From Myxococcales bacterium (lineage in GTDB: Bacteria; Myxococcota_A; Polyangia; Fen-1088), in NCBI GenBank assembly GCA_022184915.1, contig JAGTJU010000008.1, positions 6,760-70,759 of the forward strand: 64,000 nucleotides of DNA, in the 5' to 3' direction. The translations under genes were made by a program, and so were the position numbers. Each line of letters begins with the position of its first letter. Position 1 is the stretch's first letter. Positions 2,726 through 40,956 of this stretch are shown here, piece by piece. The notes under the pieces were generated by a model that had not been told where the DNA came from, did not search any database, and saw only the letters and a list, made by a program, of their open reading frames with translations.

Positions 2726-3457
2726 TCACGGATCCGTTCGGTCCACGTCCTCGATGGCGTGGCCCAGAAGCGTGAAGAGCGCCTCGAGGGCGCCGGACGG
2801 GTTGTCGGACACGTGGGTGAGCGCATCGAGCGGTGCGGGCCAGCGCCTCGTCGCCGCCGCCAGGACCGTGCGCAACTTGGTGTCGGGCACGGTGAGGCCG
2901 CGCAGGCGAAGGAGAGCCAGCAGAGGGTAGCGGACCTGACGGAGCTTGTGTTCGAGCGCATTCACGAAGAATCGGCCCTGTTCCATCGCATCGATGGTTA
3001 GGCGGCGCAGCCGTGTGTTGATCTCGCGAAGCTCCTGCTCGATTCGCAAGCGCAAGTGCTCGTCCGAAACATCTACGCCTTCGAGGGGCGGGCGGCCCGC
3101 CAGCACGACGTGGCAGGCGGCGATCTCATCGTAGAACAGGGGAAAGACATCGGCGGAACGGGCGATTTCCCCGCGCAAGAGGAGCATGCTCTCAATGCGA
3201 GCGGCATCACGGGCCAGTCGCAATGGTTGCCGCAGTTCCGTCAACAGGGGAACCGACAGCGATTCGAGCACGATGATCAGATCCACGTCGCTGCTGCCCG
3301 GGCGGTACTCGCCGCGGGCCACGCTGCCGTGGACCGCCAGGGACACCAGGTTGTCCTGCAACATCGTCTGGAGTTGCTGACTGAGCTTTTCGAGCTGGGT
3401 TTTCGTGGGTGCCGGAAGCGGGAGTGCTTCGCCAGGCCAAACTGCCGTGACGGTCAT
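2726..3457 (-). CDS. nucleotidyltransferase-domain protein (pol-beta-like NTase)
   Basis: HGSVARGEYRPGSSDVDLIIVL matches the GSx9-13DxD NTase signature. The start was chosen at MTVTAVW, which gives an ATGA stop/start overlap with the upstream DUF692 gene. Confidence 0.6.
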   Translation of the reverse strand: MTVTAVWPGEALPLPAPTKTQLEKLSQQLQTMLQDNLVSLAVHGSVARGEYRPGSSDVDLIIVLESLSVPLLTELRQPLRLARDAARIESMLLLRGEIARSADVFPLFYDEIAACHVVLAGRPPLEGVDVSDEHLRLRIEQELREINTRLRRLTIDAMEQGRFFVNALEHKLRQVRYPLLALLRLRGLTVPDTKLRTVLAAATRRWPAPLDALTHVSDNPSGALEALFTLLGHAIEDVDRTDP

Positions 3458-4869
3458 CGTGTCATCCTCTCGAGCGGTGCTGCGGTGTTTTGCGTTGCCA
3501 GCCGGTGGAGTGCATGGGGCGGCAACCAGAGCCGTACGGGGCGGCCGAAGCCTGCGCCCTTGAATGCCCAGGCGCAATCGCCCCCGGGAAGGCGTGCGCG
3601 CCCGAAAAAGGGCGTCCACCGGGGGGCCCATCCGCGCCCGCCGCCAAGGGGCCGAAAGCGGGCCCGCAGGTTCAGAAGATCGAGCTGGGCCTCCGCCGCG
3701 AACGCCGGCTCAGCCGCGGCCGCGTGAGCCACGGTGAGGGCGTCATCGACGCTGGCCAATCGGCCGGCCCGAGGGCGACTCCTGAGCGCGTCGATGGCCA
3801 GATGGACGATGTTGTGGTCGGCGCGGCGAAGCCGGGGCAACAGCGGCAAGGCCGCGTCGACGCGCTTTCGCACGAGCAGCCTTCGGGTCCGGTCGACATG
3901 ACGAACCGAAACGTCGCCCCCGCCGGGCGGCGGCACGGCGGTGAGCAGAGCTGCGAGCCGTTCCTGGTCGATCGCCAAGTCGGTTTGCGAGCCCTCGAGC
4001 CAACCGGACCCCGGCCGCGTGGACGCGCAGCGCACCGGGACCTGCGGACCCTCGCGGGGTGTGGCCAGGCAACGGGCGAGTGTTGCCAGCTCGGCGCACA
4101 GCTCGTCAAACGGCGGGAAGTTGTCGTCCCGTTCGATGACGGCAGGCCGTGGGCCCACCGCGCGGGTGACCTGCTCGACGAGCGCAAACACCGCGGACGG
4201 AATGGGGTGCGCGTGGGTGTCTACGTAAAAGCCGTCCTCGCGCAGGCCGCCCGCCACATGCAACATGGCCACCCGGTCGAGCGGGAAGCGCGCCAGGCGC
4301 TGGGAAGGCTCTTCGCCTTCGTTGATCGCGTTGGCGTAAAGGTTTGCCACGTCCAGGAGGAGCGCACACCCGGTGGCCTCGGCAACCTCGAAGTAAAAAT
4401 CTTCCTCCCGCATCTGGTCGCCTGACCAGGGTACGGTCCAGACCACGTTCTCCAACAACAAGGGAATGTCGGGCAGATGTCGGCGGGCCCGCGCGACGTT
4501 GCGGGCGACCGTGGCCACGGCGGCGCGCGTGCGGGGCAGGGCTGTGAGGTGGCCGATCTCGTGGCCCCCTGCACGGACGAAGGCCACGTGCTCGGAGACG
4601 AAGGGGGCGTCGAGCTGTCGGGCCAGGCGACCCAGCCGGATGGCGCGGCCATCGTCGATGCCCTCTGCGCTTCCAAGCGACAGCTTCACGCCGTGAAGGG
4701 CCACAGGGAGGGCCTGAGCCACCGCCTGGACCTCGCGTGCGATGCGTGAATCAGCGAGGCAGTTTTCGGCCACGACCTCGACGAAGCCCACCGTGCCCGT
4801 CTGGGCCAGCAGATCCCCGGCCAGTTCTGGACGCCACCCGATTGCCACGGCGTTTGCCGCGAGAGTCAT
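3454..4869 (-). CDS. DUF692/MNIO-family enzyme (MbnB/TglH/BufB-like TIM-barrel) with a ~190-aa C-terminal extension of unknown family
   Basis: The N-terminal ~280 aa (VGFVEVVAEN… HGVKLSLGS… LLDVANLYAN… MLHVAGG) align motif-by-motif with the two other DUF692 ORFs in this window and with the xylose-isomerase-like DUF692 fold. The gene is ATGA-coupled to the downstream NTase. Confidence 0.65.
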   Translation of the reverse strand: MTLAANAVAIGWRPELAGDLLAQTGTVGFVEVVAENCLADSRIAREVQAVAQALPVALHGVKLSLGSAEGIDDGRAIRLGRLARQLDAPFVSEHVAFVRAGGHEIGHLTALPRTRAAVATVARNVARARRHLPDIPLLLENVVWTVPWSGDQMREEDFYFEVAEATGCALLLDVANLYANAINEGEEPSQRLARFPLDRVAMLHVAGGLREDGFYVDTHAHPIPSAVFALVEQVTRAVGPRPAVIERDDNFPPFDELCAELATLARCLATPREGPQVPVRCASTRPGSGWLEGSQTDLAIDQERLAALLTAVPPPGGGDVSVRHVDRTRRLLVRKRVDAALPLLPRLRRADHNIVHLAIDALRSRPRAGRLASVDDALTVAHAAAAEPAFAAEAQLDLLNLRARFRPLGGGRGWAPRWTPFFGRARLPGGDCAWAFKGAGFGRPVRLWLPPHALHRLATQNTAAPLERMTR

Positions 4870-5045
4870 CGGGGCGCATCTTATAGCGACACCCCGAAAG
4901 GGGGAATGATTCCAGGACGGGGCTCACCTGGAAGCACGTCACTCCGCGGCAGAAACGCCCGATAAAATATGTCTTGTGAGGTCGTCGTTGGAATTGTTCG
5001 ATCGGGGCGCACATCGCCGTAAACTGCGCTGCGAGAGACCCAACA
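4870..5045. promoter_or_regulatory. divergent intergenic (promoter) region between the DUF692 fusion gene and the Cys/Gly-tail membrane protein gene
   Basis: 176-bp gap between divergent start codons. It contains a partial copy (4944-4966) of the repeat-family motif ACATATTTTATCGGGCGTTTCTG. Confidence 0.3.
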
Positions 5046-6107
5046 ATGACTTGGCAGGGTGCCTTCCTTCAGGCCGTCGACTTTTACCCGCTCAACGTGT
5101 CCAGCGGGCCGCTCTTTCTCCTTGTCTACCCTGTGGCAGCATTCGTCCTGCTGCGCTTGGGCGCAGGGCTGGGGTGGTTGCTTGGTGACGTGCTCACCCG
5201 AGCCGCGCCTGCGCCTGCGCCTGCGCCTGCGCGTGCGTCAGCTCCCTACCGCGAGCCCGAGGCCTCACGTTTCGGCGACAGGCTCCAGATCGGTTTGCCA
5301 CCTGGACCCGCTTGGCACCTGGCCATCGCGTTTCTCAGAGGCGGAAGAGATGCGGTGGCCGAGACCCTGGTGGCTCGCGCGTTGGCCGCAAAGTGGCTGC
5401 TGAGCAGCGGCGAGGGCTTTCGTGTAGACGGCGAGCCCACGTCGCTCGATGCGGACCAGCGGGTGCTTCACCACGAACTGGCGGCGCTCGACCCCTTGAC
5501 CGGCGCGGACGTCGCCCGGATCGCCCGCTCCGTGGCGAACAGTCTCGAGTCCGAAGTGAAGGAGGACCTCGAACGCGCTGGCTTCCTGTTTTCGGGGGTG
5601 GGCGGCCGGGTGCGTGCCGGCCTGCATGCTCTGGCGCTGGGCCTCGTTTTGGCCCTGGGTTTGGCGCGCGCGGTTCGCGGTTCCTTGCTGGGACGCCCCT
5701 TCACGTTCTTGGTCATCGAGATGTTCGTGGTGGTGCCGCTCGGTTGGCGCTGGTTACGCCGGCGGCGGCGGGTCACGCGCAAGGGGAAAGCGTACCTGAA
5801 GTGGCTCGAAGACGTGACGGACAGCCTGCGCGAAGACGTGAACGAGGGCCGGCGCAACACGCCCTGGGACCTGTCGCTGGCGGTCGCCTGCGCAGGCGCC
5901 GTGCTCTTGCCAAGTTCGTTGGGATATCCTCTTGCGTCCTTCCAGTCGCTACCGCGCTCTGCCGGTTCGAGACAAAGCTGTGGGAGCAGCTCGACCAGCA
6001 GCTGCAGTTCCAGCACGAGTAGCTGTAGCTCGGGCTCCAGTTGCGGAGGCGGTGGCGGGTGCGGCGGTGGTGGTGGCTGTGGAGGGGGCGGGGGCTGTGG
6101 TGGGTAA
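5046..6107 (+). CDS. membrane protein with Cys/Ser/Gly-rich C-terminal tail (TIGR04222-like architecture)
   Basis: 353 aa with several predicted TM helices. The C-terminus is SRQSCGSSSTSSCSSSTSSCSSGSSCGGGGGCGGGGGCGGGGGCGG. The antisense ORF 5468-6223 is a Pro-rich artefact. Confidence 0.5.
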   Translation: MTWQGAFLQAVDFYPLNVSSGPLFLLVYPVAAFVLLRLGAGLGWLLGDVLTRAAPAPAPAPARASAPYREPEASRFGDRLQIGLPPGPAWHLAIAFLRGGRDAVAETLVARALAAKWLLSSGEGFRVDGEPTSLDADQRVLHHELAALDPLTGADVARIARSVANSLESEVKEDLERAGFLFSGVGGRVRAGLHALALGLVLALGLARAVRGSLLGRPFTFLVIEMFVVVPLGWRWLRRRRRVTRKGKAYLKWLEDVTDSLREDVNEGRRNTPWDLSLAVACAGAVLLPSSLGYPLASFQSLPRSAGSRQSCGSSSTSSCSSSTSSCSSGSSCGGGGGCGGGGGCGGGGGCGG

Positions 6108-6295
6108 CGGGGCGTGAAGACTCGAATCAGCGCCTGGGATCGGGGCCGTGGTACTTTCGGTATCCGGTGAGCACGCCCATACAACCTGCGATCTCTTCCA
6201 CGCGGTAGGCGAGGCCGGGCCACTTGTGCAGCAAGGCGCTTTACGCTCCTTCAGATCAGGTGAGTTTCGGGCCCAATAGAGCTCGGACGCCAGAA

Positions 6296-6350
6296 CCCGG
6301 CAGCAAGGCTGAGGATGCGAGGCGGCTTGCGTTAGTTGACAGAATACATT
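6296..6350 (+). repeat. repeat-family copy A (CCCGGCAGCAAGGCTGAGGATGCGAGGCGGCTTGCGTTAGTTGACAGAA…)
   Basis: One of at least 8 copies of the same ~65-bp unit in this window (see findings). Its CCCGGCAG end is a sharp boundary. Confidence 0.7.
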
Positions 6351-6830
6351 GCTCGAAATTGATCACTTTTTGACGCGAGTGGACTTCGTGCTTGAACTTC
6401 CTGTGCGCCACATTTTTTCGACGAAAGACTGAAGGGCGCTGTCGTACGTGGTGCCAGGCAGATCGTGCTTCTCTGCGCAGGGCTCGACAGCCGAGCGCAC
6501 TGGTTCCGGCAGATGCTTGAGGGTGTGACGGTGTTCGAGGTCGAGAAGGTGGCCGCCCTTTTTAAAATTTCACGCTCCATGCGCAGGGTCTTTACCTCGC
6601 GCCGAAGGGTCGAAAGTTCCTCACGCTCAGCCGTCGTCAGAGCGCCCTTGGGGCCTCGGCCTGCATCGGTATCTGCCTGACGGATCCACGTCCGCACGAG
6701 GCTCTCGGCGAGGCCCAAGTCCCGAGCCACCTCCGGTATCCCCCGCCGTCCGCTCTGGACGAGGGCGACTGTTTCACTCTTGAACTCCGGGGTATGGACC
6801 CGCCGGGTTCGTCTTTGCCTTGCTCATGTG
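6332..6830 (-). mobile_element. IS3-family transposase OrfA remnant (frameshifted, no OrfB)
   Basis: MSKAK then a +2 shift gives RRTRRVHTPEFKSETVALVQSGRRGIPEVARDLGLAESLVRTWIRQ… LTTAEREELSTLRREVKTLRMEREILKRAATF, the canonical IS3 OrfA HTH/leucine-zipper pattern. It degenerates after AATF and abuts repeat copy A. No integrase ORF follows. Confidence 0.55.
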
Positions 6831-7101
6831 GTCACCTTTCCACGCTCTTACAACTGAGCGCCGGTGTCCACTGAATCGGGTCAACCCCGTACGGTCCTTT
6901 CCCCGAAGCGGAAGCGTACCAAGCATGGGTTGATGCCTGGGCGGGCAGCACGGATCCGCTGTTCTTTTCCGTTTGCAACCATCAAGGACAAGCTTTGGGT
7001 GCGCTGCCTATCTTCGCATCGTGCCGGAGATAGGGTGCATTGAAGTGGGACACCTGAACTTCTCACCGCGCTTGCAGCGAACGCCCGCGGCCACGGAAGC
7101 G

Positions 7102-8397
7102 CTACCCCGCAAGCCCAGCCACCTTCCGCGCCGCCACACGCTGCTCATGCTCGAAGGCATCGGCGAACGCTTCCAGCTCCTGCTTCGTCATGCCCAGCGC
7201 TTTGCCTTCGGTCCGCCAGCGGCCAACCGCACTTTCAACCTCTGCGAGGATCTCGCGCGCCCGATTCGGCGATAGACGAAAATAAGCGCAGACGGACAAC
7301 AAGGCGTCGACGCTCGCATCGGGACCGGTCTCTTCGGAGATCCAGGTCTTGAGCTCGCGCACCCGTTCGGGAAATGGGTTTACGTCGAACGCGGGGGCGA
7401 GCCGCCACTGTCCGCGCTGAACATGCAGGAACCCGTGGTTCATGAGGTGATCGTCCACGTTGGTGATCAAGATCGAAAAAGCCATCCTCCGCCACAATTC
7501 TTCCGTGTCTGCCTGCGGCCGCACGCCCCATTGACGAAGGGCGTCGACGATCTCGGCGTAGGTATGTTCGGTAGAGTCGCTTAAATCAGCGCCAAGCATC
7601 GTAGCCGCCGAGACGTACATCAGACGACCGCCCGCCGGGTGCCGATCAAACCGTCGAATGAGAGCGACCGGCGCACCGTCGCTGTCGACCAGCCTGGCTA
7701 CGGCGGCGTCGATGCCAGCCAACCCAGCAAGTCGCAGGGCAAGCACTTCTCCTTTCGTGACGGCACGTTCGTCGCTCACGCTCGGAAACTTGCCGATCGC
7801 CAAGCCGCCGTCGTCGTCAATCACGGTGCACTTCGGCCGCAGCCCACCGAGCGAAGTTCCTCTTCCGCGCAAGTAAGCCAGGTCGGCAGACGTCTCCGTC
7901 TGCGTCTCCACGGCGCGGCTCGAGGCCAGAAGCGTGCCGAGCTCGATCAGGGGAGGAGCGGTGCGACGCCCTTCTTCGGGGGCCCTCTCGAAAATTCCGC
8001 GCTCGTCGCGAAACCGCAGGGCGCCCATCCGGCTCCCATCATCTACGGCCAGCAAGAAATCCAGCGCGTTCAGTGGCGCCGTCTGCACAGGTAAGCCTGC
8101 ATGTTTGGCTTGCTGCCGGCGCTTGGCATGATCGCGCGCAATCACCCTTCGCCCCCAGCCGTCTGGCTCCGTGTCCGCAATGGCGCGGTGAAACAGCGAT
8201 CCTCCTTCCGTCTTGCGGCGATACTGAGGACCTGCCACGAGCGGCAGCGCTGGATCAACCACGAAGGCTTCGCCGCTCGACAGCCAGAGCGGATCGTACT
8301 CGAACGCAGCGATCTCTCGCCCGCCTTCCTGCGCGTGCCGCAGAAGCCCGATGGGGCGCGCGCCATCGCCAAGATGGATCCACAACGTGCGCTTCAC
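7102..8397 (-). CDS. hipA: HipA-family toxin (Ser/Thr kinase)
   Basis: 431 aa. The C-terminal AFSILITNVDDHLMNHGFL matches the HipA catalytic motif. The N-terminal HipA_N-like region is present. ATGA overlap with the upstream HTH gene. Confidence 0.8.
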   Translation of the reverse strand: MKRTLWIHLGDGARPIGLLRHAQEGGREIAAFEYDPLWLSSGEAFVVDPALPLVAGPQYRRKTEGGSLFHRAIADTEPDGWGRRVIARDHAKRRQQAKHAGLPVQTAPLNALDFLLAVDDGSRMGALRFRDERGIFERAPEEGRRTAPPLIELGTLLASSRAVETQTETSADLAYLRGRGTSLGGLRPKCTVIDDDGGLAIGKFPSVSDERAVTKGEVLALRLAGLAGIDAAVARLVDSDGAPVALIRRFDRHPAGGRLMYVSAATMLGADLSDSTEHTYAEIVDALRQWGVRPQADTEELWRRMAFSILITNVDDHLMNHGFLHVQRGQWRLAPAFDVNPFPERVRELKTWISEETGPDASVDALLSVCAYFRLSPNRAREILAEVESAVGRWRTEGKALGMTKQELEAFADAFEHEQRVAARKVAGLAG

Positions 8398-8726
8398 AAC
8401 GGCTCGATCGCTTTCTTCGGGCGTATCCGCTTTGGCAAGCGTTCGAGATCCAGAAGCAACCCCTGGTCATCCCGCCGCGGGTCGATGATCTCGCTCAAGG
8501 CGTCGCCGAATCCCAGCACGAAGAGCGCCATCGCATAGACACCCAAGGAGACGGTGGGATCGCCTTTCTCGGCGCGACGATAGGTGCTTGTGGCGACCCC
8601 CATGCGCTCGGCCATCATCGCCGCGGTGAGGTGACGCTTCTTGCGAGCCACGCCAAGGTCGAAGCCAAACTTCGCAAGCCCCCGCCGAACCCGCGGCGGC
8701 AGTGTGTCAGTGACCCTGGAGCGCAT
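8394..8726 (-). CDS. hipB: HipB-like XRE-family HTH antitoxin
   Basis: 110 aa with an HTH (RKKRHLTAAMMAERMGVATSTYRRAEKG). It is overlap-coupled to hipA. Confidence 0.7.
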   Translation of the reverse strand: MRSRVTDTLPPRVRRGLAKFGFDLGVARKKRHLTAAMMAERMGVATSTYRRAEKGDPTVSLGVYAMALFVLGFGDALSEIIDPRRDDQGLLLDLERLPKRIRPKKAIEPL

Positions 8727-9200: not shown

Positions 9201-9202
9201 GC

Positions 9203-9394
9203 CCGTGATCAGCTCACCAAGACAGTCCCGCCGTCTTCACGGCTGGTGGATGCGCTGCCCTCGTTGCGCGCGTGGCGTCCAGATCTCGGCACCGATCATC
9301 CACTTGCGCAACGCCTCCCGGGATACACGAACGCCATGTAGCTCAGCAGGTTTTTCGTGAGTTTTCACTTTGCGTCTACACGCCGCTGTTAGGC
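9203..9394 (-). mobile_element. internally deleted fragment of the type-2 IS21-family element (istA codons ~105-150 joined to its IRL)
   Basis: 9203-9360 is >90 % identical to 31130-31290 (istA of the 29852-31658 element). 9360-9394 (TTTTCACTTTGCGTCTACA) matches that element's terminus. Confidence 0.5.
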
Positions 9395-11196
9395 CCAAGT
9401 AGAAATGTCCCCATTCCTGCAAAGTAGGAATGTCCCCTTATGGGTATTGAGGGATGGTAGCACCTTGGGGGCGGCGGGTGCGGAGTCGGCCGATCAGCGG
9501 GCCCCCAATGGCCCGCAGGCCGGCGGACCCGTTGCCATTGAGTTGATGCTCATCGCCGCCCCCCGTCAGCGGCCCTCGCACTAGACTCGGCCGCCTTGGC
9601 TCGGGTTTGGATCTCCAATTGTTCGCGGTCGCGTTTGCGCTGCTTACTGGCGTCGTTGTATCGCTTTCGCCGTGCTTTCTGTTCGGCCTCGAACTTGGCG
9701 AAGAAGTTTGCCATTTCAGTCCCGCATTCAGGTGACCCTTGCGTGGCCGCAATGGCTGAAGCCAGTCGGTCAGTGTTGGGGACTGATGGGATCACATCAG
9801 CAGTACGATTGGTTTCTGCGCGCGACTCGCGTAAGTGCGTTTTTTGTCGAAGCGTAAGTTTTTTCGAGGCCAATCGACGCTGGTCGCGCTCCTCCTGGCC
9901 TGCTCGGATGGTTGAGAGCACGGCGCCAAGCCGCTTGTTCTCGACAATCGCACCGGGAGCCACCAGAGGTTGCTTGTCGAGCACGGTATAGGTCAGAAGA
10001 TGGTTGGCGCAGCGGATCTCGACCTGACCATCCGCCGCTTCGAAGAGGCGCACGCGACGTCCGGCGAGGCTGAGTGATTCTGGGCTGGGCACAATCAGGT
10101 ACGTACGCCGCTGATAATGCACGACCAGGTTGCGCGTCATCGTGCGCTCCTCTTGCCAGGTGAAAACCTCCGAAAGGACTTCGCCTGGTTGCACCGGGCG
10201 GTGCGCATCATGGGGGTTCATCGGCGCATGTGCAAAGCGGCGGTTGTAGTCGACCATGAACTCCGGTGCATACGCGTTTGCGTCCGCCATCGTGCTTATT
10301 TCACGCAGACGCATTTCCTTGACGAGCCGGTCCTGCAAGGTCTTGTTCATGCGCTCGACACGGCCTTTGGCCTGCGGCGTATTGGCGCAGATGATCTCGA
10401 TGTTGAGATCGCCCAGCGCGCGACCGAACTGTGTAACACCGGCGGAACGGCCGCTCGAGCCTTCCTGGTTCACGCGGAAGATGCTGTGTTTGTCGCTGTA
10501 AAACGCCACCGGTTTTCCGTAGTGACTTAGATACGACTGCGTGGCGGCAAAATAGTCGAAGGCCGATTCACTCACCACAAAACGCAGTTCCATCAACCGT
10601 CCCGTCGCATCGTCCACGTAGACCAATGCCGTGCAGCGATCAGCGCGCGCCTCGAACCACTCATGGTCGCAGCCATCAATTTGCACCAGCTCGCCAAGAC
10701 ATTGGCGGCGGTGCCGGGGCTGATGAACACGCCGTTTGCGCTCCCCACGGGTGAGCCACAGTCCGGCCTCAGCGAGCCACCCACGGACAGTCTCACGGCT
10801 CGCGTGTATGCCGTGGATCTCAACGAGCTTCTCGTGCGCCAGCTTCGGCCCGAAATCCGCGTAGCGCTCGCGTACGAGAGCCACAACCATTGCCTTCGTT
10901 TCAGCAGCGAGCTTGCGATTGCTCGGACGCCCTCGCAGCTGCGACGTAAGCCCAGCCAACCCTTGCGCTTTGAACTGCCGGCAAAGGCGCTTTACTTGGC
11001 GTACGCTGAGCCCCAGCAGGCCCGCGGCTTTGGACTGTGTCAGACGCTTCTCGAGTACCCGACGGATCATCTCGCCTCGATCGATCTCTCGGTTGGACAT
11101 GGTTACGAATCCCTTCGGCATGAGTCCACCCATGAGGACGCATAACGCGGCTCAAAGGGGACATTTCTACTTGGGCCGAAGGGGACATTTGAACTT
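9394..11196 (-). mobile_element. IS21-family element (type 1), istA only, no istB
   Basis: Ends are TGTTAGGCCCAAGTAGAAATGTCCCC and (rc) TGTAGCGCCCAAGTTCAAATGTCCCC, i.e. TGT… termini with GACATTT sub-repeats. Flanking CGCCGC direct repeat. Only ~150 bp remain between istA and the end, so an IstB ATPase gene cannot fit. Confidence 0.75.
9550..11133 (-). CDS. istA: IS21-family transposase IstA
   Basis: 527 aa with an N-terminal HTH and DDE core (…VQIDGCDHEWFE… DDATGRLMELRFV…). ~50 % identical to the second IstA at 30071-31606. Confidence 0.85.
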   Translation of the reverse strand: MGGLMPKGFVTMSNREIDRGEMIRRVLEKRLTQSKAAGLLGLSVRQVKRLCRQFKAQGLAGLTSQLRGRPSNRKLAAETKAMVVALVRERYADFGPKLAHEKLVEIHGIHASRETVRGWLAEAGLWLTRGERKRRVHQPRHRRQCLGELVQIDGCDHEWFEARADRCTALVYVDDATGRLMELRFVVSESAFDYFAATQSYLSHYGKPVAFYSDKHSIFRVNQEGSSGRSAGVTQFGRALGDLNIEIICANTPQAKGRVERMNKTLQDRLVKEMRLREISTMADANAYAPEFMVDYNRRFAHAPMNPHDAHRPVQPGEVLSEVFTWQEERTMTRNLVVHYQRRTYLIVPSPESLSLAGRRVRLFEAADGQVEIRCANHLLTYTVLDKQPLVAPGAIVENKRLGAVLSTIRAGQEERDQRRLASKKLTLRQKTHLRESRAETNRTADVIPSVPNTDRLASAIAATQGSPECGTEMANFFAKFEAEQKARRKRYNDASKQRKRDREQLEIQTRAKAAESSARAADGGRR

Positions 11197-23005: not shown

Positions 23006-23020
23006 GGCGTGGCCTCAGCG

Positions 23021-34330: not shown

Positions 34331-34622
34331 GACGGAAGTGGTTCGAGGCGAAGGAGCGACTGCACGCGGCCGAAGTCCCTGTGTCGAACCGTTCTTACGC
34401 AATTGACTTGCAGAATATAAATAAAATGCAGAAATGAATGAGTTGCATTAATTCGGGCTGCGGGCTAGGGTACATGAGCGTCGGGCGGCAGGGGCGGGTC
34501 AGCCAGGGTTCGTGAAAAGTCCGTGGCGGGGTGTGGGGCCACTCCCGGCGCAGTTTCCTTCCCCAGCAGGAGGGGGACCCTCTACGTGTGCGTCCCGGCG
34601 CCGCCCATGGCCGTGATGGCGG

Positions 34623-35244
34623 CTAGCCACCGATTACAAAGCCGAACCGCGCCTGATCAGTGCGGCCATCGGCCAACTCCACGTTCACGGTCGTAAGCCA
34701 GTACCCTGGCATGAACAAATTCACGGGCGCGGCCTGATACTGACCTGACTGAGGCCCCGACGTCACGACGACCGTCGTTCCGGACCCATGTCCATGGTCC
34801 GGCATGCGAGGCACCACCGTAACTCTCGCCCCCTCGGGCCGCGTGCCGTCGATTGGCCTCACGAGCAACGACCACTGGCTTTGTCCCTTCAGGGGTGGCG
34901 GAGGCGTCGCCTCGAGAAGGGTGACCTCAATGAGGCCTCTTTCACCTGTTGCCACCATGCCGGGAACGAAGACCAGCGCCCGCGCGTCGCGTGGGTCCAC
35001 CTGAAGCGGGGGGGGCCGCGTCCCCCGGCGGACTTTGCCCCAGGCCTTCGTCGTTCCTTTCCCCTGCGTCCTCGGTTGGTCCTTGGCCGAGAGGCGCAGG
35101 GCCAGCCGCATCCGTCGGGGAGGGGGCCGGGTCATCGCAGCCGGCCAGGACGAGCAGGGCCCAGAGCGGCGCCAGAGCGAGGAACTCCCCCCGGCGGATG
35201 CGGCTTCCGGGCCTTCCTCTGCGAATCAAGGCGCGCAGCAACAT
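34623..35244 (-). CDS. lipoprotein, reading frame broken at a G/C8 homopolymer (35008-35015)
   Basis: The signal/lipobox MLLRALIRRG…LLVLAGCDD lies in one frame (TGATG-coupled to the upstream cytochrome gene). The conserved-looking body …VFVPGMVATGERGLIEVTLLEAT… lies in the -1 frame. The switch maps to the C8 run. Confidence 0.4.
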
Positions 35245-36122
35245 CAATCCGAGACCTTGATGGTCGCGGCTACGGGTTGCAACTGGGTCCGCACATACTG
35301 GACCGCCCGCTCGATCTCCGCCCGCGAAAACACCTTGTGGTACGGCGACATGTGGGAGAAAGCTGAACCATCGGGCAGGCGACCGATGGACCCGAAGGCT
35401 ACCATGCGCGCCTGTTCCGCGGCAGAACGCTTTTCGAGCCAGTTCGCGATGGTGCGACCGCCGGCCTGCTCCTGCTCGCCGGGCATGAAGTAGACTTTGA
35501 ACTTGGTCAGGTCGACAGCTTGGCCAGACCAATCCGCATGGCAATTCGTGCAGGCGCGGGGCCCGGTCTCGGGCAGCATCGCCTCGTAGACCTCTTTACC
35601 CGTTTTTCCCGCGTCGGCAGGCAACACGACGCAGCTAATCCCGTTGCAGCCATTCGTTCCCGCACAGGTGTGTTCGGTCGTGACGCCGGGATCCCAGTCC
35701 CCGTAGGAAAAGCCCGCGCAGCTGTTGACGCCCGCGCAGGCGGCGTGCACCTGCGTGTAGCCTGCGCGCTGATCACAGGCTTGCTTGATCTCCGCGAAGG
35801 TGCGGGTGCCTTCCGTTTCCAGAGTGACCATGGGTCCCACGGGAGCTGCCGCGTCCGCAGGGGCAGGGGCCGCGTCGGGAAGCGAACAAACTCCCCCATC
35901 GCTTGGCCCGGCATCGGCTTGCGGGGGAGGGCAGGAGCACATCGACGACGCGTCGAGGACCACGGGGTCGGGTTCCATGGTCGCATCGTCACTGCATCCC
36001 AGAGCCCCGACGCCCAGCAAGCCGGTCAGGGCGCTGGTCATCAGGGCACGCGTGGGCGTGCTCGCGACGTTCGAGGGAAGGGCCGGTGCGATGAGGCTGA
36101 AGAGGCGAGCTCTACGGGACAT
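35244..36122 (-). CDS. lipoprotein with a single CxxCH haem-c-binding motif (cytochrome-c-like)
   Basis: Lipobox LLGVGALGCSDD, Cys-rich, with CTNCH at about residue 205. Confidence 0.5.
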   Translation of the reverse strand: MSRRARLFSLIAPALPSNVASTPTRALMTSALTGLLGVGALGCSDDATMEPDPVVLDASSMCSCPPPQADAGPSDGGVCSLPDAAPAPADAAAPVGPMVTLETEGTRTFAEIKQACDQRAGYTQVHAACAGVNSCAGFSYGDWDPGVTTEHTCAGTNGCNGISCVVLPADAGKTGKEVYEAMLPETGPRACTNCHADWSGQAVDLTKFKVYFMPGEQEQAGGRTIANWLEKRSAAEQARMVAFGSIGRLPDGSAFSHMSPYHKVFSRAEIERAVQYVRTQLQPVAATIKVSD

Positions 36123-36253
36123 GGTTTCCTCTGTAGTCGTTGACGGCCCGGAAGGCCCAAGTTACGTGAAGTGCGCATCCTCTCCGCGATGGCGGTTCGT
36201 GGGAATGCGACACTTTGTCGCAGGGAGCTTTTTCCGCTGCGGATCGTAGGAAC

Positions 36254-36880
36254 TCACTTCAAGATGGCGCGCATGTCTCGAAAACCCGCCGTATCGGGCG
36301 GAGACACATCGAACCCCTCGGTCCCGATATCGACCGAAACCGTGTGGTTAGCCCCCGCGCCGTTGCGATCGGTGAGCTCCATTCTCAGTGCGTAACCCCC
36401 TGCAGCGATCTCACACCCGTGCAAATCCCGAAGGTCCCAAACAACCTCGTGAACCGTGTGTCCCGTCAAGGTAGCACCCGTGATGGCATCCACCTCGTTG
36501 CCCCCCGAGACGGCGAGCCAGGCCGAGAGCCACTTGGCGCGCACGTTGCCCCACGAAGCGAGCGTACGGACGAACTGCCCTTGGCTCGTCTCCATCCAAA
36601 TGGCGCCCACGTTCTTGGGTGCGAAGCGGCCTCCCAGGGGAGCCGTGCGGACCGTGAAGGTGAGCGTGCGTTCAGATCGTGGAACCGCGCACGCCGGATT
36701 GTTGTCCGGAGCGTCCGCAGACCCTGCATCTCGGACGAACAGCTCGGTAGGCAGGGTAAGCGCGTCGGTGTCAAGGAAGTCTTTGGCTGGGTCTGTCGGG
36801 TAGCAGGCCGTGAGGCAAACCAGGACGAGAGCCGAAAGCCACGACGCGCGAGCGGGTGCGCCCTGTTTCTGGGTTCGTTC
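36254..36880 (-). CDS. lipoprotein, hypothetical (start codon not identified)
   Basis: The C-terminal ~200 aa of ORF 36254-37999 are protein-like (signal …WLSALVLVCLTACYP, then a beta-rich domain ending DMRAILK). The upstream 380 aa of that ORF are an antisense artefact. No ATG is present near the signal peptide. Confidence 0.4.
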   Translation of the reverse strand, partial: ERTQKQGAPARASWLSALVLVCLTACYPTDPAKDFLDTDALTLPTELFVRDAGSADAPDNNPACAVPRSERTLTFTVRTAPLGGRFAPKNVGAIWMETSQGQFVRTLASWGNVRAKWLSAWLAVSGGNEVDAITGATLTGHTVHEVVWDLRDLHGCEIAAGGYALRMELTDRNGAGANHTVSVDIGTEGFDVSPPDTAGFRDMRAILK

Positions 36881-37954
36881 GTCGTGGGGGCGTTCTCCTG
36901 CGGGGGGCCTGCTCGGACCACGTTGGCCTCGTCCTCCGTCTACGTGCGGGCGGATACCGACCGCACCACCGTCGTCTCCCCGGAGATTCGCGCCGCGGCC
37001 GCGGTGGGAGAGAGGGTCACCGTCGAGGCCTCCGAGGTCGTGGATGCGTGGACGGGCGCCTCGATCGACGTCATCACGGCTGCCACCGGCACCATCCGCG
37101 AGCGGCGCTTCGAGACGAACGCCCAGGTGGGCTACAGGGGTGACCTCTGGGCGTTCGCCCTGGGGCTTCGGCACTCTTTCGAGAACGACTACGGGTCTTT
37201 GGGGGGCTCGCTGCGGCTGGCGGCTGACGTCTTCCAGCGCAACACCACCTTGGCTTTGGTGGGTTTTGGAAGCACGGATGCAGTGGGACGTGCGGGAGAT
37301 CCAGGCTTCCGCCGCGGGGTCGTGCAGCTGGGGGGGCGTGTCTCCGTCACGCAGGTGTTGACGCGTTCGACGCTGGCCGAGTTGCAGTGGGAGAGCGTTC
37401 GCCTCGAAGGATATCAAGCGAGTCCCTATCGCTTCGTGGGCGTTGGTGGCGATGGCGTGTGTGGGGGGCGAGCGGTGTTCTGTCTGCCCGAACATGTACC
37501 GGACGGTCGTCTGCGCAACGCACCCTCGATCCGGTTGCGCCAGGCGCTCTCCACCCGCGCCTCTTTGGGTTGCGATTATCGCTTCTACTTCGATTCTTGG
37601 GGCTTGCAGTCCCACACCATCGAACCTGACCTTGCCTGGCTGATGGGGCGGTCGGGAACGTTGAGCGTAAGCTTTCGCCATCACACGCAAGGACGGGCTG
37701 ACTTTTACCGCGCTCGTTACCTTGGTCTCGACGGCAGTGAAGGATTTTTTACGCGTGATCGCAAGCTCTCGACGTTCTCGTACCATGGTGTGGGACTCTC
37801 CTACGTTCACGATCTGAGGCTTCGCGACGAGGGTACGGTCCTGCAACTGGGGGCTCGTGCCGCCTTTACACGATTTCATTATCTGGAGTTCCTTGGGCTT
37901 GAACGGGTATCGGTGCTCGAGACCACGGCGTACGTCGCCTTGCGCTTCGAGTGA
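36810..37954 (+). CDS. outer-membrane beta-barrel-like protein (DUF3570-like pattern), 5' end uncertain/frameshifted
   Basis: From ~36840: RRASGCALFLGSFVVGAFSC (signal-like), then alternating-hydrophobic beta-strand sequence through …TAYVALRFE. The ATG at 36810 is in a different frame, so either a frameshift or a non-ATG start is needed. Confidence 0.4.
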
Positions 37955-38679
37955 CGTCGGCGCAGGTGACGACCCGCAACGAGGGCGAGACAAGCCCATG
38001 GCACAGACGGGATGCTCCCCCCGGCGGCGGACAGTGAACAGCCCGCCAGGGGTGTGCCTTCGGCGCGCAGTTCGTGACGAACTTCGAGCACACCGTCACC
38101 TTGGCTGTCGCCTGCGCTGTTTGAAAGCACCACCCCGAGTGCGAAGGTCAGCGACTTCGTCGGGGGCGCTGTAAAGGAGAGCGAGACCTCGCTGGCGCCG
38201 CAGTCGAGAACACCCACCACGCGCCGGAAACCAAGGTCATGCGCGTAAAACGCAGGTGGCGCGCTACCGACTTCGTCGCAGCGGGATGCTGGGTTCGCCT
38301 CGGCAGCAGGGGGCAATGTCACGGGAGGTGAACGGCCGAGGTCATCCATCAGTTCCATTTGCAGTGCGTGAGAGCCCCGATCCGGTGGCCAGCTCAGAGT
38401 GAGATTGTAGGTGGCGCCGGGAATGAAGGTGCGGGGCAGGGCGCTCTCGACGGGGGCGTCGTTCGTGAGGTTCCGCCAGGCGATGGCCACGACCGGCTCG
38501 GGGCCTCCCTCGTGGCATACACCGCAGCCAAACCCATCACCTGGCGCTCCCGTGAATTGTCTGCCCCCGCCACCGCCCTCCAGCGCCGGCAGCGCGAAGC
38601 GCCCGGGGTCCGAGAACGCCTGCGCAGATGAAGGAGCTGCAAGACCTGCGAGGCAGAACGCGGCCATCAGTGGCTTCAT
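37879..38679 (-). CDS. secreted CxxCH-motif protein with MYXO-CTERM-like C-terminal sorting tail
   Basis: Signal MKPLMAAFCLAGLAAPSSAQA, CGVCHEG, and a C-terminal …GCSLSAAGGSIPSVPWACLALVAGRHLRRRH (GCS, hydrophobic stretch, RRR). Confidence 0.5.
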   Translation of the reverse strand: MKPLMAAFCLAGLAAPSSAQAFSDPGRFALPALEGGGGGRQFTGAPGDGFGCGVCHEGGPEPVVAIAWRNLTNDAPVESALPRTFIPGATYNLTLSWPPDRGSHALQMELMDDLGRSPPVTLPPAAEANPASRCDEVGSAPPAFYAHDLGFRRVVGVLDCGASEVSLSFTAPPTKSLTFALGVVLSNSAGDSQGDGVLEVRHELRAEGTPLAGCSLSAAGGSIPSVPWACLALVAGRHLRRRHSKRKATYAVVSSTDTRSSPRNSR

Positions 38680-39137
38680 CGAAGAGTCTCCGCGGTCACG
38701 GCCCAGAAAAAGAGCGCCTCCCATCGGGGATCCCTCTTTGTCAGATAGATGCTTTGGCCCCAGGGGTCGTCACCCGCGTGACCTGCACCGCCTGCCTCCA
38801 CGGCCAACGGTTTTCGAAGGAGGGGGCCGCGCCGGACGCCGGATTCGCCCGCCAGCATGGAGGCCGCTCGTGTATACGCGAGGGCCAGCTCCTCAGCCGT
38901 GGGAGGATCGAAGAGGGCCGTCGCTGGGTCGAGCCGGGTGCGCCCGGGGCCGTGCACGCGAAAGAAGCGCTGTTCGTTTCCGTGACAACCCGAGAACGCG
39001 CAGTCGGCGAGCAGAATCGGATAGACGGTGGACGCAAACGCCGCAGGGTCGGGGCGGGGGGGGGACGCCTCCTCGGGAGGGGGTGCGCAGGCCCACAGGA
39101 TCGAGCCGACGAAGCACGCGCCCCATCGCCTCAGCAT
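38676..39137 (-). CDS. small secreted protein with CAFSGCH motif
   Basis: Signal MLRRWGACFVGSILWACA, 153 aa. It is overlap-coupled between the DUF2063 gene and the CxxCH-protein gene. Confidence 0.45.
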   Translation of the reverse strand: MLRRWGACFVGSILWACAPPPEEASPPRPDPAAFASTVYPILLADCAFSGCHGNEQRFFRVHGPGRTRLDPATALFDPPTAEELALAYTRAASMLAGESGVRRGPLLRKPLAVEAGGAGHAGDDPWGQSIYLTKRDPRWEALFFWAVTAETLR

Positions 39138-40015
39138 GGGTCTACGCCCTCCCAGAAGCCGAACTTCACCGACTCGGCAAGCCAGGCCTTCACAAGGTGC
39201 GAAAGACGAGTGGGGGGCAAAGCGATGGCTTCACGCTCGAGAGCCGCCAGGGCCTCGGCCAGCGGCAATTCCGACAAGCGTTCGTAGAGACGTGCCTGCA
39301 ATTCGTCGATCAGCCACAGGCGAGGCCCGGTTTCGCCCCTTACGAGGGCGGCGTGAACCCGCCGGGGGTGTTGCGGGGGTAGGGGCACGGGGGCTTCTGG
39401 AGGGAGTGAGGTCAAGCGGCTGCGCAACGCGAGCAGGGGCCAGTCTTCCTCGACCAAAAAGAACCGACCCGAGGGACGAAGGCGGCCCGTGGCCAGCTGG
39501 TCCGTGCCGACTCGCTGAAACGCACGCGACGTCTCCGCCCGGGGTTCCGGGGCCCAAAAAGCTGCACGGTACGCAGCATCGATGCGAGCGGCCTGGACGA
39601 GCGCCGTGGCGGATACGGCCGCACCCTCGAACGGCGGGAGTCCTGCGTTGTGACCTTGCGCGAGCCAATCGTCGAAGCCGAGGGCAACCTCCCCGAGGTC
39701 GTGCCCCCGGGGTGGGTGCTTTTCCAGGAAGCCTGCGACCAAACCGTTGAAGCCCCAAGCCCCCGCCAGTGCCGCGACCAGGCGATACTCGTTTTGCATG
39801 ACCGCGAACAAACGAAACCAGTACTGTCGCTGGTAGACCGCCAGCCTTTCGCCGGGACTGAGCCCATGGCCCGCTTTGGCCTCGTTCAACAGTCGACGAG
39901 GATAGTCTTCAGGACGGGCTCGCAGCGTCCGCGACCTGCGGTCCAGGGGCGTTCTCAGGACGTCAGAGAAGTCTCTCTGAAACTGCGCGAGCCAGGCAGG
40001 GCCTGCCAGGGTCAT
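39131..40015 (-). CDS. DUF2063-family protein (MNIO partner; BufC/HvfC-like)
   Basis: Start at MTLAGPAWLAQFQRDF (ATGA overlap with the DUF692 stop). RLAVYQRQYWFRLFAVMQNEYRLVAALAGAWGFNGLVAGFLEKHPPRGHDLGEV matches the DUF2063 core (vYrnn…FP…G…F…HPP…L). Confidence 0.6.
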   Translation of the reverse strand: MTLAGPAWLAQFQRDFSDVLRTPLDRRSRTLRARPEDYPRRLLNEAKAGHGLSPGERLAVYQRQYWFRLFAVMQNEYRLVAALAGAWGFNGLVAGFLEKHPPRGHDLGEVALGFDDWLAQGHNAGLPPFEGAAVSATALVQAARIDAAYRAAFWAPEPRAETSRAFQRVGTDQLATGRLRPSGRFFLVEEDWPLLALRSRLTSLPPEAPVPLPPQHPRRVHAALVRGETGPRLWLIDELQARLYERLSELPLAEALAALEREAIALPPTRLSHLVKAWLAESVKFGFWEGVDPC

Positions 40016-40956
40016 GCGCGGACCTTTCGTGCCTCGGCGAGTTCCTCGATGACGACCTCGAGGGGTGGTATCGCTGCGTCCCACTCGACGAGCGTAGGAA
40101 AGGGCCCCCCCAAAGCCCAGGCGAAGCGATAGAGCTCCCAAACCTCCCGAATGATGGGTTGGTCGTGGGTGTCGATGATCGTTCCATCCGGCTGTTTCGT
40201 GTGGCCAGCGAGGTGCACCTGCAGCACGCGCGAGTAGTCGATCGCCTCGAGGTACACCCGTGGGTCGAAGCCGTGGTTGACGCTCGAAACGTACACGTTG
40301 TTGATGTCCAACATGAACCAGCAGCCTGAGTCTTTGACGACGCGGGAGTAAAACTCCCACTCCGGCATGGAGGAGCGCTCGAATGCGACGTAGGTGGACA
40401 GGTTCTCGATGCCAAAGGGCCGGTCAAGCCGGCGCTGCACTTCACAAGCACGCTCTGCAGCCAGCTCGACGAGCTCGGGGACATAAGGGGTGGGCAGCAG
40501 GTCGTGGTGCGAGACGCCTTCGGCCCCCGACCAGCACAGGTGATCGGTGACGAAAGGCACCGCGAGAGCATTGGCCAGATCGGTGACCTTCTGCAGGTAC
40601 TCTTCGTCGAGAGGCGCGTGTCCCAGGAGGTTCAGCGTCACCCCGTGCATGACCACGGGATAGAGGGCACGAATCCGTGCCAGATGCCGGTTGGGTGGTG
40701 AGTCTGGACGAAGATAGTTCTCCGTAATGATCTCGACGTAATCAACGGGTGGTTTGGTCGTCTGGAGTGCGTCGTAAAACGGGGGCCGGAGCCCAACGCC
40801 CAGGGCGTCGCGGGCGAGGGCAGGCCTGGCGGTGTCTTTGGCCTTTGGAGACACGAGCCCGGGAGGGTACCTCAGGATCGTTCTGCCTCCCCTGCGGCAA
40901 TAGGTCGCACCCCCTGACCTTGCCCCCGGGGCTGGCTGGCGGCACCCTCGTGGCAT
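40012..40956 (-). CDS. DUF692/MNIO-family enzyme (BufB/HvfB-like)
   Basis: LGVGLRPPFYDALQTTKPPVDYVEIITENYL… HGVTLNLLG… FMLDINNVYVSSVNHG… LQVHLAGH is a canonical DUF692 domain. The true start may be a GTG near 40851 rather than the first ATG. Confidence 0.7.
   Translation of the reverse strand: MPRGCRQPAPGARSGGATYCRRGGRTILRYPPGLVSPKAKDTARPALARDALGVGLRPPFYDALQTTKPPVDYVEIITENYLRPDSPPNRHLARIRALYPVVMHGVTLNLLGHAPLDEEYLQKVTDLANALAVPFVTDHLCWSGAEGVSHHDLLPTPYVPELVELAAERACEVQRRLDRPFGIENLSTYVAFERSSMPEWEFYSRVVKDSGCWFMLDINNVYVSSVNHGFDPRVYLEAIDYSRVLQVHLAGHTKQPDGTIIDTHDQPIIREVWELYRFAWALGGPFPTLVEWDAAIPPLEVVIEELAEARKVRA

Follow-up and report, generated by a model that had tools for sequence, protein, structure and literature searches.

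MNIO enzymes (Pfam family PF05114, formerly DUF692) constitute a fast-growing family in which nearly each newly characterized clade has yielded unprecedented peptide chemistry. The characterized members mostly modify cysteine, and non-cysteine substrates are also known (PMC12257519). Among the described systems, bufferins comprise lipoprotein precursors and cytochrome-c fusions (PMC11626156, PMC12452194), and subsets of TIGR04222 proteins have been proposed as MNIO substrates in clusters from which DUF2063 genes are absent (Leprevost et al., Microb Genom 2025, PMC12452194). In the split borosins, the precursor RceA carries ten DVIELSSGGEL repeats (bioRxiv 10.1101/2021.12.24.474128; PMC8429565), and Y58, R67, and Y71 are the catalytic residues of the N-methyltransferase SonM (PMC8429565). 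Here, we describe a 64,000-nucleotide stretch (hereafter, the window) of contig JAGTJU010000008.1 from a Myxococcales metagenome-assembled genome (MAG; GCA_022184915.1), which carries three MNIO genes (MNIO1, MNIO2, and MNIO3) in three gene neighborhoods, referred to as loci 1, 2, and 3. We hold with good confidence that these are three MNIO-based systems for peptide or protein modification, of separate origins, located in a plastic stretch that is rich in insertion sequences (ISs) and toxin–antitoxin modules and lower in GC content at third codon positions (GC3). This reading draws on gene content, family assignments, conservation of operon and repeat across taxa, and separate placement of the MNIOs, all of which were established directly, together with the MNIO2 fold in a predicted model. 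Locus 2 is apparently an undescribed eight-gene pathway combining known enzyme families, a novel repeat precursor, and an MNIO with non-canonical ligands; loci 1 and 3 belong to published kinds, as new members or variants.

Kinship of the Three MNIO Genes

PF05114 (MbnB_TglH_ChrH; gathering threshold, 25 bits) was detected above threshold in three open reading frames (ORFs) of the window, all on the minus strand: 3454–4869 (471 aa; 259 bits, aa 9–268), 23021–23917 (298 aa; a weak match of 34.1 bits, aa 134–262), and 40012–41019 (310 bits, aa 73–333). A six-frame hidden Markov model (HMM) scan of the whole window yielded exactly these three ORFs and no fourth MNIO. An earlier note, made from the DNA alone, had placed DUF692 genes at these three positions, each in a different gene context, and both statements were confirmed. 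In the first ORF, the MNIO domain occupies ~nt 4066–4845 alone, and the remainder encodes a separate ~200-aa C-terminal domain. The true start of MNIO3 is probably near 40860, because its homologues comprise 268–290 aa and a DUF4266 gene on the plus strand begins at 40955.

The pairwise identity among the three MNIOs is 14–31%. BLASTP aligned MNIO1 with MNIO3 at 31% identity over 259 aa and with MNIO2 at 29% over 100 aa (E 3e-8), and returned no significant match between MNIO2 and MNIO3. A neighbor-joining tree (268 trimmed columns, 200 bootstraps) was constructed from family members, relatives of MNIO2 outside its own family, and PDB fragments of 3BWW, TglH, and two MbnBs, exclusive of the full reference sequences of ChrH, ApyH, BufB, and HvfB. 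Each of the window MNIOs grouped with its own family (in 197, 199, and 195 of the 200 bootstraps, respectively), and the trio was monophyletic in none; furthermore, MNIO3 joined 3BWW in 150, and MNIO2 with its outside relatives was split from all canonical MNIOs in 189. Because each MNIO joins its own family and the trio never groups, a separate evolutionary origin of the three genes, rather than local duplication, is supported. Recent paralogy through duplication inside the island, which the shared strand of the three genes within 37 kb could suggest, is extremely improbable: the partner genes differ, MNIO1 is 50–54% identical to Sorangium proteins, MNIO3 is 65–75% identical to many proteins, MNIO2 is 54–75% identical to its own small family, and the pairwise identities together with the bootstrapped tree exclude local duplication. 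The mutual divergence claimed in the earlier note therefore holds, and the recent paralogy that it had named as the outcome against it does not.

None of the three MNIOs reached the curated NCBIfam cut-off of MbnB, ChrH, ApyH, BufB, or HvfB. For BufB (NF050167; cut-off, 310 bits), the score of MNIO3 was just under (301.2), followed by MNIO1 (207.2) and MNIO2 (23.4); for HvfB (NF003818; cut-off, 360 bits), MNIO3 scored best (225) and MNIO1 reached 172; for ApyH (NF050151; cut-off, 400), the scores were 99 for MNIO1 and 37.7 for MNIO2. The best scores for MbnB (TIGR04159) and ChrH (NF050165) were 43 against a cut-off of 325 and 47 against 600, respectively. MNIO1 and MNIO3 lie on the BufB/HvfB-like side of the family, with MNIO2 as an outlier. 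The proposal that the three represent different MNIO clades is accordingly sustained as distinct subfamilies in the tree but not as membership of any named clade.

A Divergent MNIO and a Precursor-Like Repeat Protein at Locus 2

Locus 2 (~16.2–23.9 kb) comprises eight minus-strand genes, separated by short gaps or slightly overlapping, of which MNIO2 is the first (Table 1). The second gene encodes a precursor-like protein with a conserved ~95-aa N-terminal domain, a linker, eight tandem 16-aa units (aa 127–254, each ending in I or F), and a pentapeptide-repeat C-terminal domain. On the DNA, the repeat array (22241–22628) has a 48-nt period with 8.1 copies and 95% matches in Tandem Repeats Finder. 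The precursor has no signal peptide, and all eight of its cysteines lie inside the repeats, one per unit. The number of repeats varies across orthologues (4, 7, 8 in the window, and at least 15), and the unit itself is strictly kept: Y1, A4, R7, C8, A9, P10, A11, and D13 do not vary in any of the 38 units examined, RCAPA(I/V)D is present in 38/38, and the next Pro in 37/38. The N-terminal domain was considered as a borosin-binding domain and gave no PDB sequence match; in the profile search, which covered sequence only, no PDB chain fell below E 0.48, SonA included.

The MNIO2 family is very rare. Only 19 clusters (54–100% identity) were found among 5.8 billion proteins, and an exhaustive HMM search of 1.84 billion representatives returned 5 matches below 1e-30 and 520 below 1e-3; relatives of MNIO2 were present in 2 of 185,579 species genomes in a genome scan and on one contig in a metagenome scan. 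The operon and the precursor architecture are nevertheless kept in all six loci whose downstream sequence could be read, which range from Myxococcota to Janthinobacterium (handles L002, L003/L004, L005/L006, L011, and L012, the last being the cultured betaproteobacterium Janthinobacterium fluminis hw3). The flanking genes differ between these relatives and include type VI secretion system, IS, and recombinase genes. This distribution suggests horizontal transfer for locus 2, and for locus 2 only. In the searchable literature, neither the repeat motif nor this combination of genes was found to be described.

The match of TIGR03975 spans the full length of the B12-binding radical S-adenosylmethionine (SAM) protein. 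All 25 PDB sequence matches of the 282-aa N-methyltransferase are borosin N-methyltransferases, with SonM as the best (E 1.8e-18) and dbOphMA, OphMA, and MroMA among the others; the protein retains SonM Y58 and Y71 as its Y71 and Y81, respectively, and SonM Y93 aligns with M103. The second, divergent TP_methylase-fold protein has no PDB sequence match, and its position is conserved in L003, L004, and L012. In L002 (GCA_036704275.1, 11904–12589), this gene is split into ORFs of 96 and 134 aa, which reflects either a dispensable gene or a sequencing frameshift. The β-hydroxylase and kinase-like genes are conserved in L002, L003, and L012. The last position is occupied by the PRMT-like type also in L002 and by Methyltransf_24 instead in L003 and L012, i.e., in the Janthinobacterium-type clusters.

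The AlphaFold2 model of MNIO2 (predicted local distance difference test, pLDDT, 81; predicted template modeling score, pTM, 0.83) has only TglH, MbnB, and 3BWW among its nine top Foldseek matches in the PDB (E 3e-14 to 6e-9, TM score 0.61–0.77), and according to this prediction MNIO2 folds as an MNIO despite its weak Pfam score. Relative to the canonical nine iron ligands of the MbnB and TglH structures (H-H-E-D-N-H-D-H-E), the positions in MNIO2 read H76-D112-E160-D192-H195-N223-D239-Y241-E269, of which five are canonical; D112, H195, N223, and Y241 stand at the canonical His, Asn, His, and His, respectively, in both profile–profile and multiple alignments. In relatives outside the family, the set is H-D-E-D-H-H-D-H-E, and only the D and H changes are shared. 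Because these relatives share two of the four changes and keep the other two His, a functional variant site is suggested.

The proposed pathway is as follows. The cytoplasmic precursor has eight identical 16-residue units between a recognition-type N-terminal domain and a pentapeptide-repeat cap. Each unit would be tailored by the borosin-type backbone N-methyltransferase and the B12-binding radical SAM C-methyltransferase, the Asp β-hydroxylase would act on the invariant Asp, the PRMT-like methyltransferase would act on the invariant Arg, and the kinase-like protein would take part; MNIO2 would most probably act on the single invariant Cys. The candidate pairings of Cys with MNIO, Asp with hydroxylase, and Arg with the PRMT-like enzyme are plausible. 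We infer that locus 2 joins an MNIO pathway to a split borosin, closest in logic to type V (RceA/RceM), in a multi-core hybrid whose product may stay protein-sized.

Several observations weigh against this pathway. MNIO2 is devoid of four of the nine canonical iron ligands and may bind a different metal cluster, target a non-Cys residue, or be non-oxidative. No recognizable MNIO partner of the DUF2063, MbnC, or TglI type is encoded in locus 2, and no protease or transporter gene occurs in or beside the operon in the window, L002, L003, or L012; the product may remain a modified protein. In the N-methyltransferase, SonM R67 falls in a two-residue gap, though R72 follows the first Tyr. At all three loci, furthermore, the chemistry and every pairing of enzyme with residue are proposals. 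A different account would make locus 2 something other than an MNIO-dependent Cys pathway, with MNIO2 as a degenerate or repurposed TIM barrel that serves, e.g., as a scaffold or modifies Asp or Tyr, and with a product that is in essence a multi-core borosin or a modified structural protein. The four replacements (H to D, N to H, H to N, and H to Y), the known non-Cys substrates of MNIOs, the missing partner protein, and the invariant Tyr and Asp of the repeat unit all point in this direction, as does the best, though weak, NCBIfam match of MNIO2, the Asp-acting ApyH. The replacement residues, however, could all still ligate metal and vary little or not at all in the family, two of them recur in the outside relatives with the other two His retained, MNIO2 opens the operon and shows strict co-conservation with the single-Cys repeat, and most characterized MNIOs act on Cys. 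We therefore regard this account as doubtful, though not negligible, and retain the pathway in which MNIO2 acts on the repeat cysteine.

In our estimation, the chances are about evenly balanced that locus 2 represents a multi-core ribosomal natural product, or a modified protein, of a new class, in which 4 to at least 15 identical 16-residue units are each processed by up to six enzymes, among them a borosin-type backbone N-methyltransferase and an MNIO of a previously unrecognized clade. If so, its metal site (H-D-E-D-H-N-D-Y-E) differs from that of every characterized MNIO and could perform new chemistry. An altered-ligand MNIO would here be joined to borosin-type N-methylation, B12-dependent radical SAM methylation, and β-hydroxylation on a repeat precursor, a combination that we found in no paper. 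The cultured host J. fluminis hw3 and the compact operon make locus 2 directly testable and suited to heterologous reconstitution.

Loci 1 and 3 Within an IS-Rich Region

At locus 1 (~2.7–6.1 kb), MNIO1 holds all nine canonical ligands (H59/H94/E140/D173/N176/H204/D217/H219/E246), and its fusion of an MNIO domain with a C-terminal domain is widespread in homologues from Sorangium spp. and Minicystis rosea (50–54% identity). The C-terminal domain is modeled as six helices and a small β-sheet (pLDDT 86), with no Foldseek PDB match and no profile similarity to DUF2063 in hhalign; its role as a built-in partner is a guess. In the relatives (read in S. cellulosum CP012672, M. rosea CP016211, and a 112-kb JGI contig), a conserved five-gene operon encodes, in order, the MNIO, an NTP_transf_2 nucleotidyltransferase, a membrane protein of ~330–350 aa, a protein of ~435–490 aa of no known family, and TauD. 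The nucleotidyltransferase of locus 1 shares 47–48% identity with the S. cellulosum and M. rosea proteins encoded after the MNIO, and the window TIGR04222 protein is 33–35% identical to the third operon protein of Sorangium and Minicystis, which carries the same CGGGGGCGGGGGCGGGGGCGG tail. In the window, the TIGR04222 gene lies 177 nt from MNIO1, its product ends in ...SSCSSSTSSCSSGSSCGGGGGCGGGGGCGGGGGCGG, and the tail reads SSCSS...CGGGGGCGGGGGCGGGGGCGG; in Sorangium and Minicystis (two loci with readable DNA), the third protein ends in ...SSCSSSSCGGGGGCGGGGGCGGGGGCGG. The window tail is nearly equal to the Sorangium/Minicystis tail (CGGGGGCGG...) despite the low identity elsewhere. Because it is so strongly conserved for a low-complexity sequence, this Cys/Gly/Ser tail of the TIGR04222 membrane protein is probably the functional target, and its cysteines would be oxidatively modified by MNIO1. 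A small precursor ORF was also sought upstream of MNIO1, and none there was convincing.

The MNIO–nucleotidyltransferase pair is inverted in the window relative to the TIGR04222 gene, and locus 1 is a rearranged, reduced, lineage-specific form of the Polyangia operon MNIO–nucleotidyltransferase–TIGR04222–X–TauD. The divergent layout is a lineage trait and not an assembly error, because the same three-gene layout recurs in a contig from a different sequencing run (L015; Logan SRR32583943), which matches window 2390–6232 at 97.5–99.5% nucleotide identity. A point on the other side is that tblastn detected no remnants of the ~450-aa and TauD genes in the window, and the locus, without two genes conserved elsewhere, may be non-functional. 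L015 is devoid of window 4916–5015 (intergenic), and TCGGGGCGCA occurs at 4868–4877 and 5001–5010, near but not at the edges of this segment; furthermore, an MntA/HepT toxin–antitoxin pair stands in L015 in place of the IS3 fragment and HipBA of the window. Locus 1 sharpens the still hypothetical MNIO–TIGR04222 relationship, and the nucleotidyltransferase, ~450-aa protein, and TauD companions point to a multi-step pathway.

At locus 3 (~34.6–41.2 kb), MNIO3 belongs to a large family (5400 matches at E<1e-20, many 65–75% identical), with relatives in Polyangiaceae, Kofleriaceae, Sandaracinaceae, and Labilithrix. A DUF2063 gene directly follows the MNIO at this locus only and is absent from loci 1 and 2. 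In L007, L008, and L013, the genes after the MNIO–DUF2063 pair, one or two in number, are convergent with it and encode secreted proteins or lipoproteins, which share the C-terminal motif C-x13-C-x-G-x-N-x-C-x-G-x2-Y...H-x-C-x3-N-x-C-x-G-x2-C. The same 6-Cys motif is found in the window in the 292-aa lipoprotein encoded 3.9 kb downstream of MNIO3, which has an internal 6-Cys BufA2-like domain (aa ~112–166) and a C-terminal CxxCH. Directly upstream of MNIO3, where a signal-peptide precursor of the DUF2282 or Buf_6/12Cys type was sought, no such ORF and no convincing candidate were found, and a DoxX gene was not found at the locus. Locus 3 is thus a bufferin-2-like system with a non-canonical layout, in which the BufB-like MNIO3 and its DUF2063 partner would turn cysteines within a secreted 6-Cys domain into heterocycles that bind metal, a conversion demonstrated for bufferins. 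This assignment is weakened by the BufA2-like score (19 versus 60 bits) and by unrelated genes that lie between the lipoprotein gene and MNIO3, namely those for proteins of 153 and 281 aa, DUF3570 (plus strand), and a DUF2271 match. The earlier note had paired each MNIO with a distinct putative Cys-containing substrate; Cys-containing candidates do exist at all three loci, but the candidate of locus 3 is 3.9 kb away and none adjoins MNIO3.

Other genes in and around locus 3 were as follows. Two secreted proteins with CAFSGCH and CGVCH motifs (CxxxxC/CxxCH-like) are encoded directly after the DUF2063 gene (38676–39137 and 37879–38724, both minus strand); they have at most a weak choice-of-anchor V match and were not found beside MNIO3 homologues elsewhere. 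A weak YtkA-domain match, from the precomputed annotation of the short-read contig L014, lies right after the BufA2-like gene (34623–35243, minus strand) and may be relevant to a metal-related role of the locus. In L007 (GCA_046351395.1, a Polyangiaceae MAG), a 485-aa secreted Cys-rich repeat protein (6531–7988; ~60 Cys, CxxxCC-type) ends 13 nt before the MNIO3 homologue and may be a further large MNIO substrate. The GGCGCN end of the DUF4266 lipoprotein resembles the TIGR04222 tail of locus 1. As an MNIO3 substrate, this lipoprotein was rejected, since it is absent beside the MNIO3 homologues in L007, L008, and L013 and unmentioned in PMC12452194. The divergent DUF4266 gene is probably unrelated to MNIO3, and DUF4266 is not known to be linked to MNIOs. 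The gene (40955–41185, plus strand) is parted by the minus-strand MNIO3 block from a DUF3570 gene (~36600–37954, plus strand), the usual operon partner of DUF4266, and this separation may reflect IS-mediated rearrangement; the DUF2271 match (36316–36601, minus strand) overlaps the long DUF3570 ORF on the opposite strand.

The first 45 kb of the window contain six transposase genes or fragments (two ISAzo13, two helix-turn-helix (HTH)+rve_3, one IS91, and an IS3 OrfA fragment), three toxin–antitoxin modules, and gene fragments. The GC3 is 0.76–0.80 at locus 1, 0.70–0.76 at locus 2, and 0.69–0.77 at locus 3, compared with 0.83–0.86 in the flank at 45–62 kb (MotA/TonB/FtsJ-type genes), with 19 kb of flank as the entire reference; the GC content is 58–74%, and Rfam gave no match anywhere in the window. 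Positions 1–45 kb thus fit a plastic, compositionally atypical region. The two ISAzo13 copies, A and B, form a 1333-nt inverted repeat of 100% identity, 13.1 kb apart, which brackets locus 3, another transposase, and a MazF gene, and the bracketed segment could be a composite element or an invertible segment.

The toxin–antitoxin modules are HipA with a HipB-like HTH protein (7102–8726), VapC (PIN) with its antitoxin (11414–12099), and a MazF/PemK toxin (29129–29827). A 152-nt direct repeat of 94% identity (9210–9361 and 31139–31290) stands beside the two related HTH+rve_3 transposases (9550–11133 and 30071–31606) and probably represents the common ends of a single IS family that is present in two diverged copies. 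The IS3 OrfA fragment after locus 1 (6332–6730, minus strand) is a sub-threshold HTH_Tnp_1 match (19.9 versus 24.1 bits). Two truncated genes on the plus strand, by eye the C-termini of an AMP-binding enzyme (1392–1811) and of an aminotransferase-like protein (13325–13822), are consistent with repeated rearrangement of the region. Between locus 2 and an IS, an 866-aa secreted protein (24350–26950, minus strand) with a collagen-like G-x-y repeat and DUF7151, choice-of-anchor I, and phytase-like domains has a native-like GC3 of 0.83.

The neighborhood of the three loci is itself open to another explanation, in which large myxobacterial genomes hold several MNIO loci, and IS shuffling or mis-joining at identical IS copies has brought three of them together by coincidence or as an assembly artefact, with no hotspot biology. 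The MNIO1 and MNIO3 families are indeed common in Myxococcota, and two identical 1.3-kb IS copies lie inside the contig. The short-read contigs of the same sample correspond to window 22571–27331 (L001) and 31701–41602 (L014); their ends at 27331, 31701, and 41602 lie within ~45–210 nt of IS boundaries, and that at 22571 lies inside the 48-nt repeat array. Since these contigs stop at IS and repeat borders, the linkage of the three loci across the IS copies is given by the MAG contig only, which counts against their joint reading. The low GC3 and the density of toxin–antitoxin modules and ISs across 1–45 kb argue, on the other hand, for one real plastic region, and in a rough, uncomputed estimate that assumes ~6 MNIO genes placed at random in a ~10-Mb genome, three would fall within 40 kb in ~1/1000 genomes. 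Coincidence or artefact is therefore rather unlikely in our judgment, and we maintain that the three loci share one plastic region.

Regarding the earlier suggestion of an IS-rich island that is a hotspot of independent acquisition, the IS-rich region was verified by its IS elements and toxin–antitoxin modules, and by a GC3 of 0.69–0.80 under that of the flank. Independent origin also held; a rare and patchy distribution is displayed by locus 2 only, and an acquired hotspot is plausible but unproven. Because the MNIO1 and MNIO3 families are common in Myxococcota/Polyangia, loci 1 and 3 may be resident genes that were shuffled by IS activity rather than acquired. The presence of three independent systems in one such stretch is of modest interest.

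Table 1. Coordinates of the genes and IS copies of the three MNIO loci in the window, with the basis of each assignment.
Feature	Coordinates	Strand	Basis
Locus 1: nucleotidyltransferase NTP_transf_2, translationally coupled to MNIO1	2726–3460	-	PF01909 35 bits
Locus 1: MNIO1, 471 aa, MNIO domain aa 9–268 and ~200-aa family-specific C-terminal domain	3454–4869	-	Pfam 259 bits
Locus 1: TIGR04222 membrane protein, putative MNIO1 substrate, divergent from MNIO1	5046–6107	+	NCBIfam TIGR04222 64.1 bits, cut-off 43
Locus 2: PRMT/PrmA-like SAM-dependent protein methyltransferase, approximate start	16198–17181	-	Pfam PRMT_C 33 bits, PrmA 28 bits
Locus 2: P-loop kinase-like protein, 206 aa	17136–17756	-	weak Pfam: CPT 22 bits (at cut-off), AAA_28
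Locus 2: Asp/Asn β-hydroxylase-family protein, 264 aa	17738–18532	-	PF05118 88 bits
Locus 2: borosin-type peptide α-N-methyltransferase homologue, 282 aa	18534–19382	-	PDB sequence matches
Locus 2: B12-binding radical SAM protein, C-methyltransferase subfamily of ribosomal peptide (RiPP) maturation	19375–21270	-	TIGR03975 375.5 bits, cut-off 281.85; Pfam Radical_SAM and B12-binding
Locus 2: second, divergent TP_methylase-fold protein, 233 aa	21307–22008	-	PF00590 51 bits
Locus 2: precursor-like protein, 331 aa	22010–23005	-	translation, Pfam Pentapeptide 68.7 bits
Locus 2: MNIO2, 298 aa, divergent MNIO	23021–23917	-	Pfam 34 bits, AlphaFold2 and Foldseek
ISAzo13-family IS copy A	27376–28708	-	transposase 27408–28646; DDE_Tnp_ISAZ013 452 bits
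Locus 3: lipoprotein, 292 aa, best MNIO3 substrate candidate	35244–36122	-	BufA2 19.1 bits, E 1e-3, cut-off 60
Locus 3: DUF2063 (HvfC_N) partner, PME-type 1	39131–39994	-	PF09836 54 bits
Locus 3: MNIO3, BufB/HvfB-like, canonical ligands 9/9, approximate start	40012–40860	-	Pfam 310 bits; best PDB match 3BWW
DUF4266 lipoprotein ending GGCGCN, divergent from MNIO3	40955–41185	+	PF14086 56 bits
ISAzo13-family IS copy B	41813–43145	+	transposase 41875–43113

Comparison With Described Systems

Locus 1 corresponds to the MNIO–TIGR04222 clusters (PMC12452194) in its BufB/HvfB-like MNIO, its TIGR04222 membrane protein with a Cys-interspersed Ser/Gly tail, and the absence of DUF2063; its relatives have the TIGR04222 gene after the MNIO, an order seen in more than 10% of published cases. 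By contrast, its MNIO is fused to a ~200-aa domain without detectable DUF2063 similarity, the nucleotidyltransferase, ~450-aa protein, and TauD companions are unmentioned in the main text of PMC12452194, and in the window the TIGR04222 gene is transcribed divergently from the MNIO, with the final two genes of the operon missing. Locus 3 resembles bufferin 2 (BufA2/BufB/BufC DUF2063/DoxX; PMC11626156, PMC12452194) in that a BufB-like MNIO is followed by DUF2063 with a 6-Cys BufA2-like lipoprotein nearby. It differs in that the precursor does not precede the MNIO, being convergent in other Myxococcota and 3.9 kb downstream in the window, and in that locus 3 has no DoxX found, a BufA2 score far under the cut-off, and unrelated genes interposed.

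Locus 2 has counterparts in three described systems, each in part. The oxazolins and Buf_EGKCG proteins (PMC11252979, PMC12452194) share the idea of an MNIO acting repeatedly on cysteines in a bona fide protein with tandem repeats; however, their substrates are Sec-exported, with 17-residue EGKCG repeats, and are served by canonical BufB-like MNIOs and DUF2063 partners, whereas at locus 2 the precursor lacks a signal peptide and its motif is unrelated to theirs. Aminopyruvatide (ApyH/ApyD) and biphenomycin-like (PbsC) systems likewise combine an MNIO with a B12-binding radical SAM enzyme, and the biphenomycin type also with a hydroxylase; furthermore, ApyH and ApyD are among the best NCBIfam matches of MNIO2 and the locus 2 radical SAM protein, although the scores are far under the cut-offs (for ApyD, 72 versus 750, and for ApyH as given above). 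Locus 2 differs from both in having neither a RiPP recognition element nor a partner gene, in its repetitive precursor with a single Cys per unit, and in the ligand set of MNIO2. The type V split borosins RceA/RceM and SonM/SonA (bioRxiv 10.1101/2021.12.24.474128; PMC8429565) share with locus 2 a SonM/OphMA-like TP-methylase that stands alone and a multi-core precursor, separate from it, of near-identical tandem units. Locus 2 departs from them in its core sequence, in the pentapeptide-repeat end of the precursor, in the lack of detectable similarity to the borosin-binding domain, and in the unaligned SonM R67, and it adds to the split borosin set an MNIO, a B12-binding radical SAM enzyme, an Asp hydroxylase, a second TP-methylase, and kinase-like and PRMT-like enzymes.

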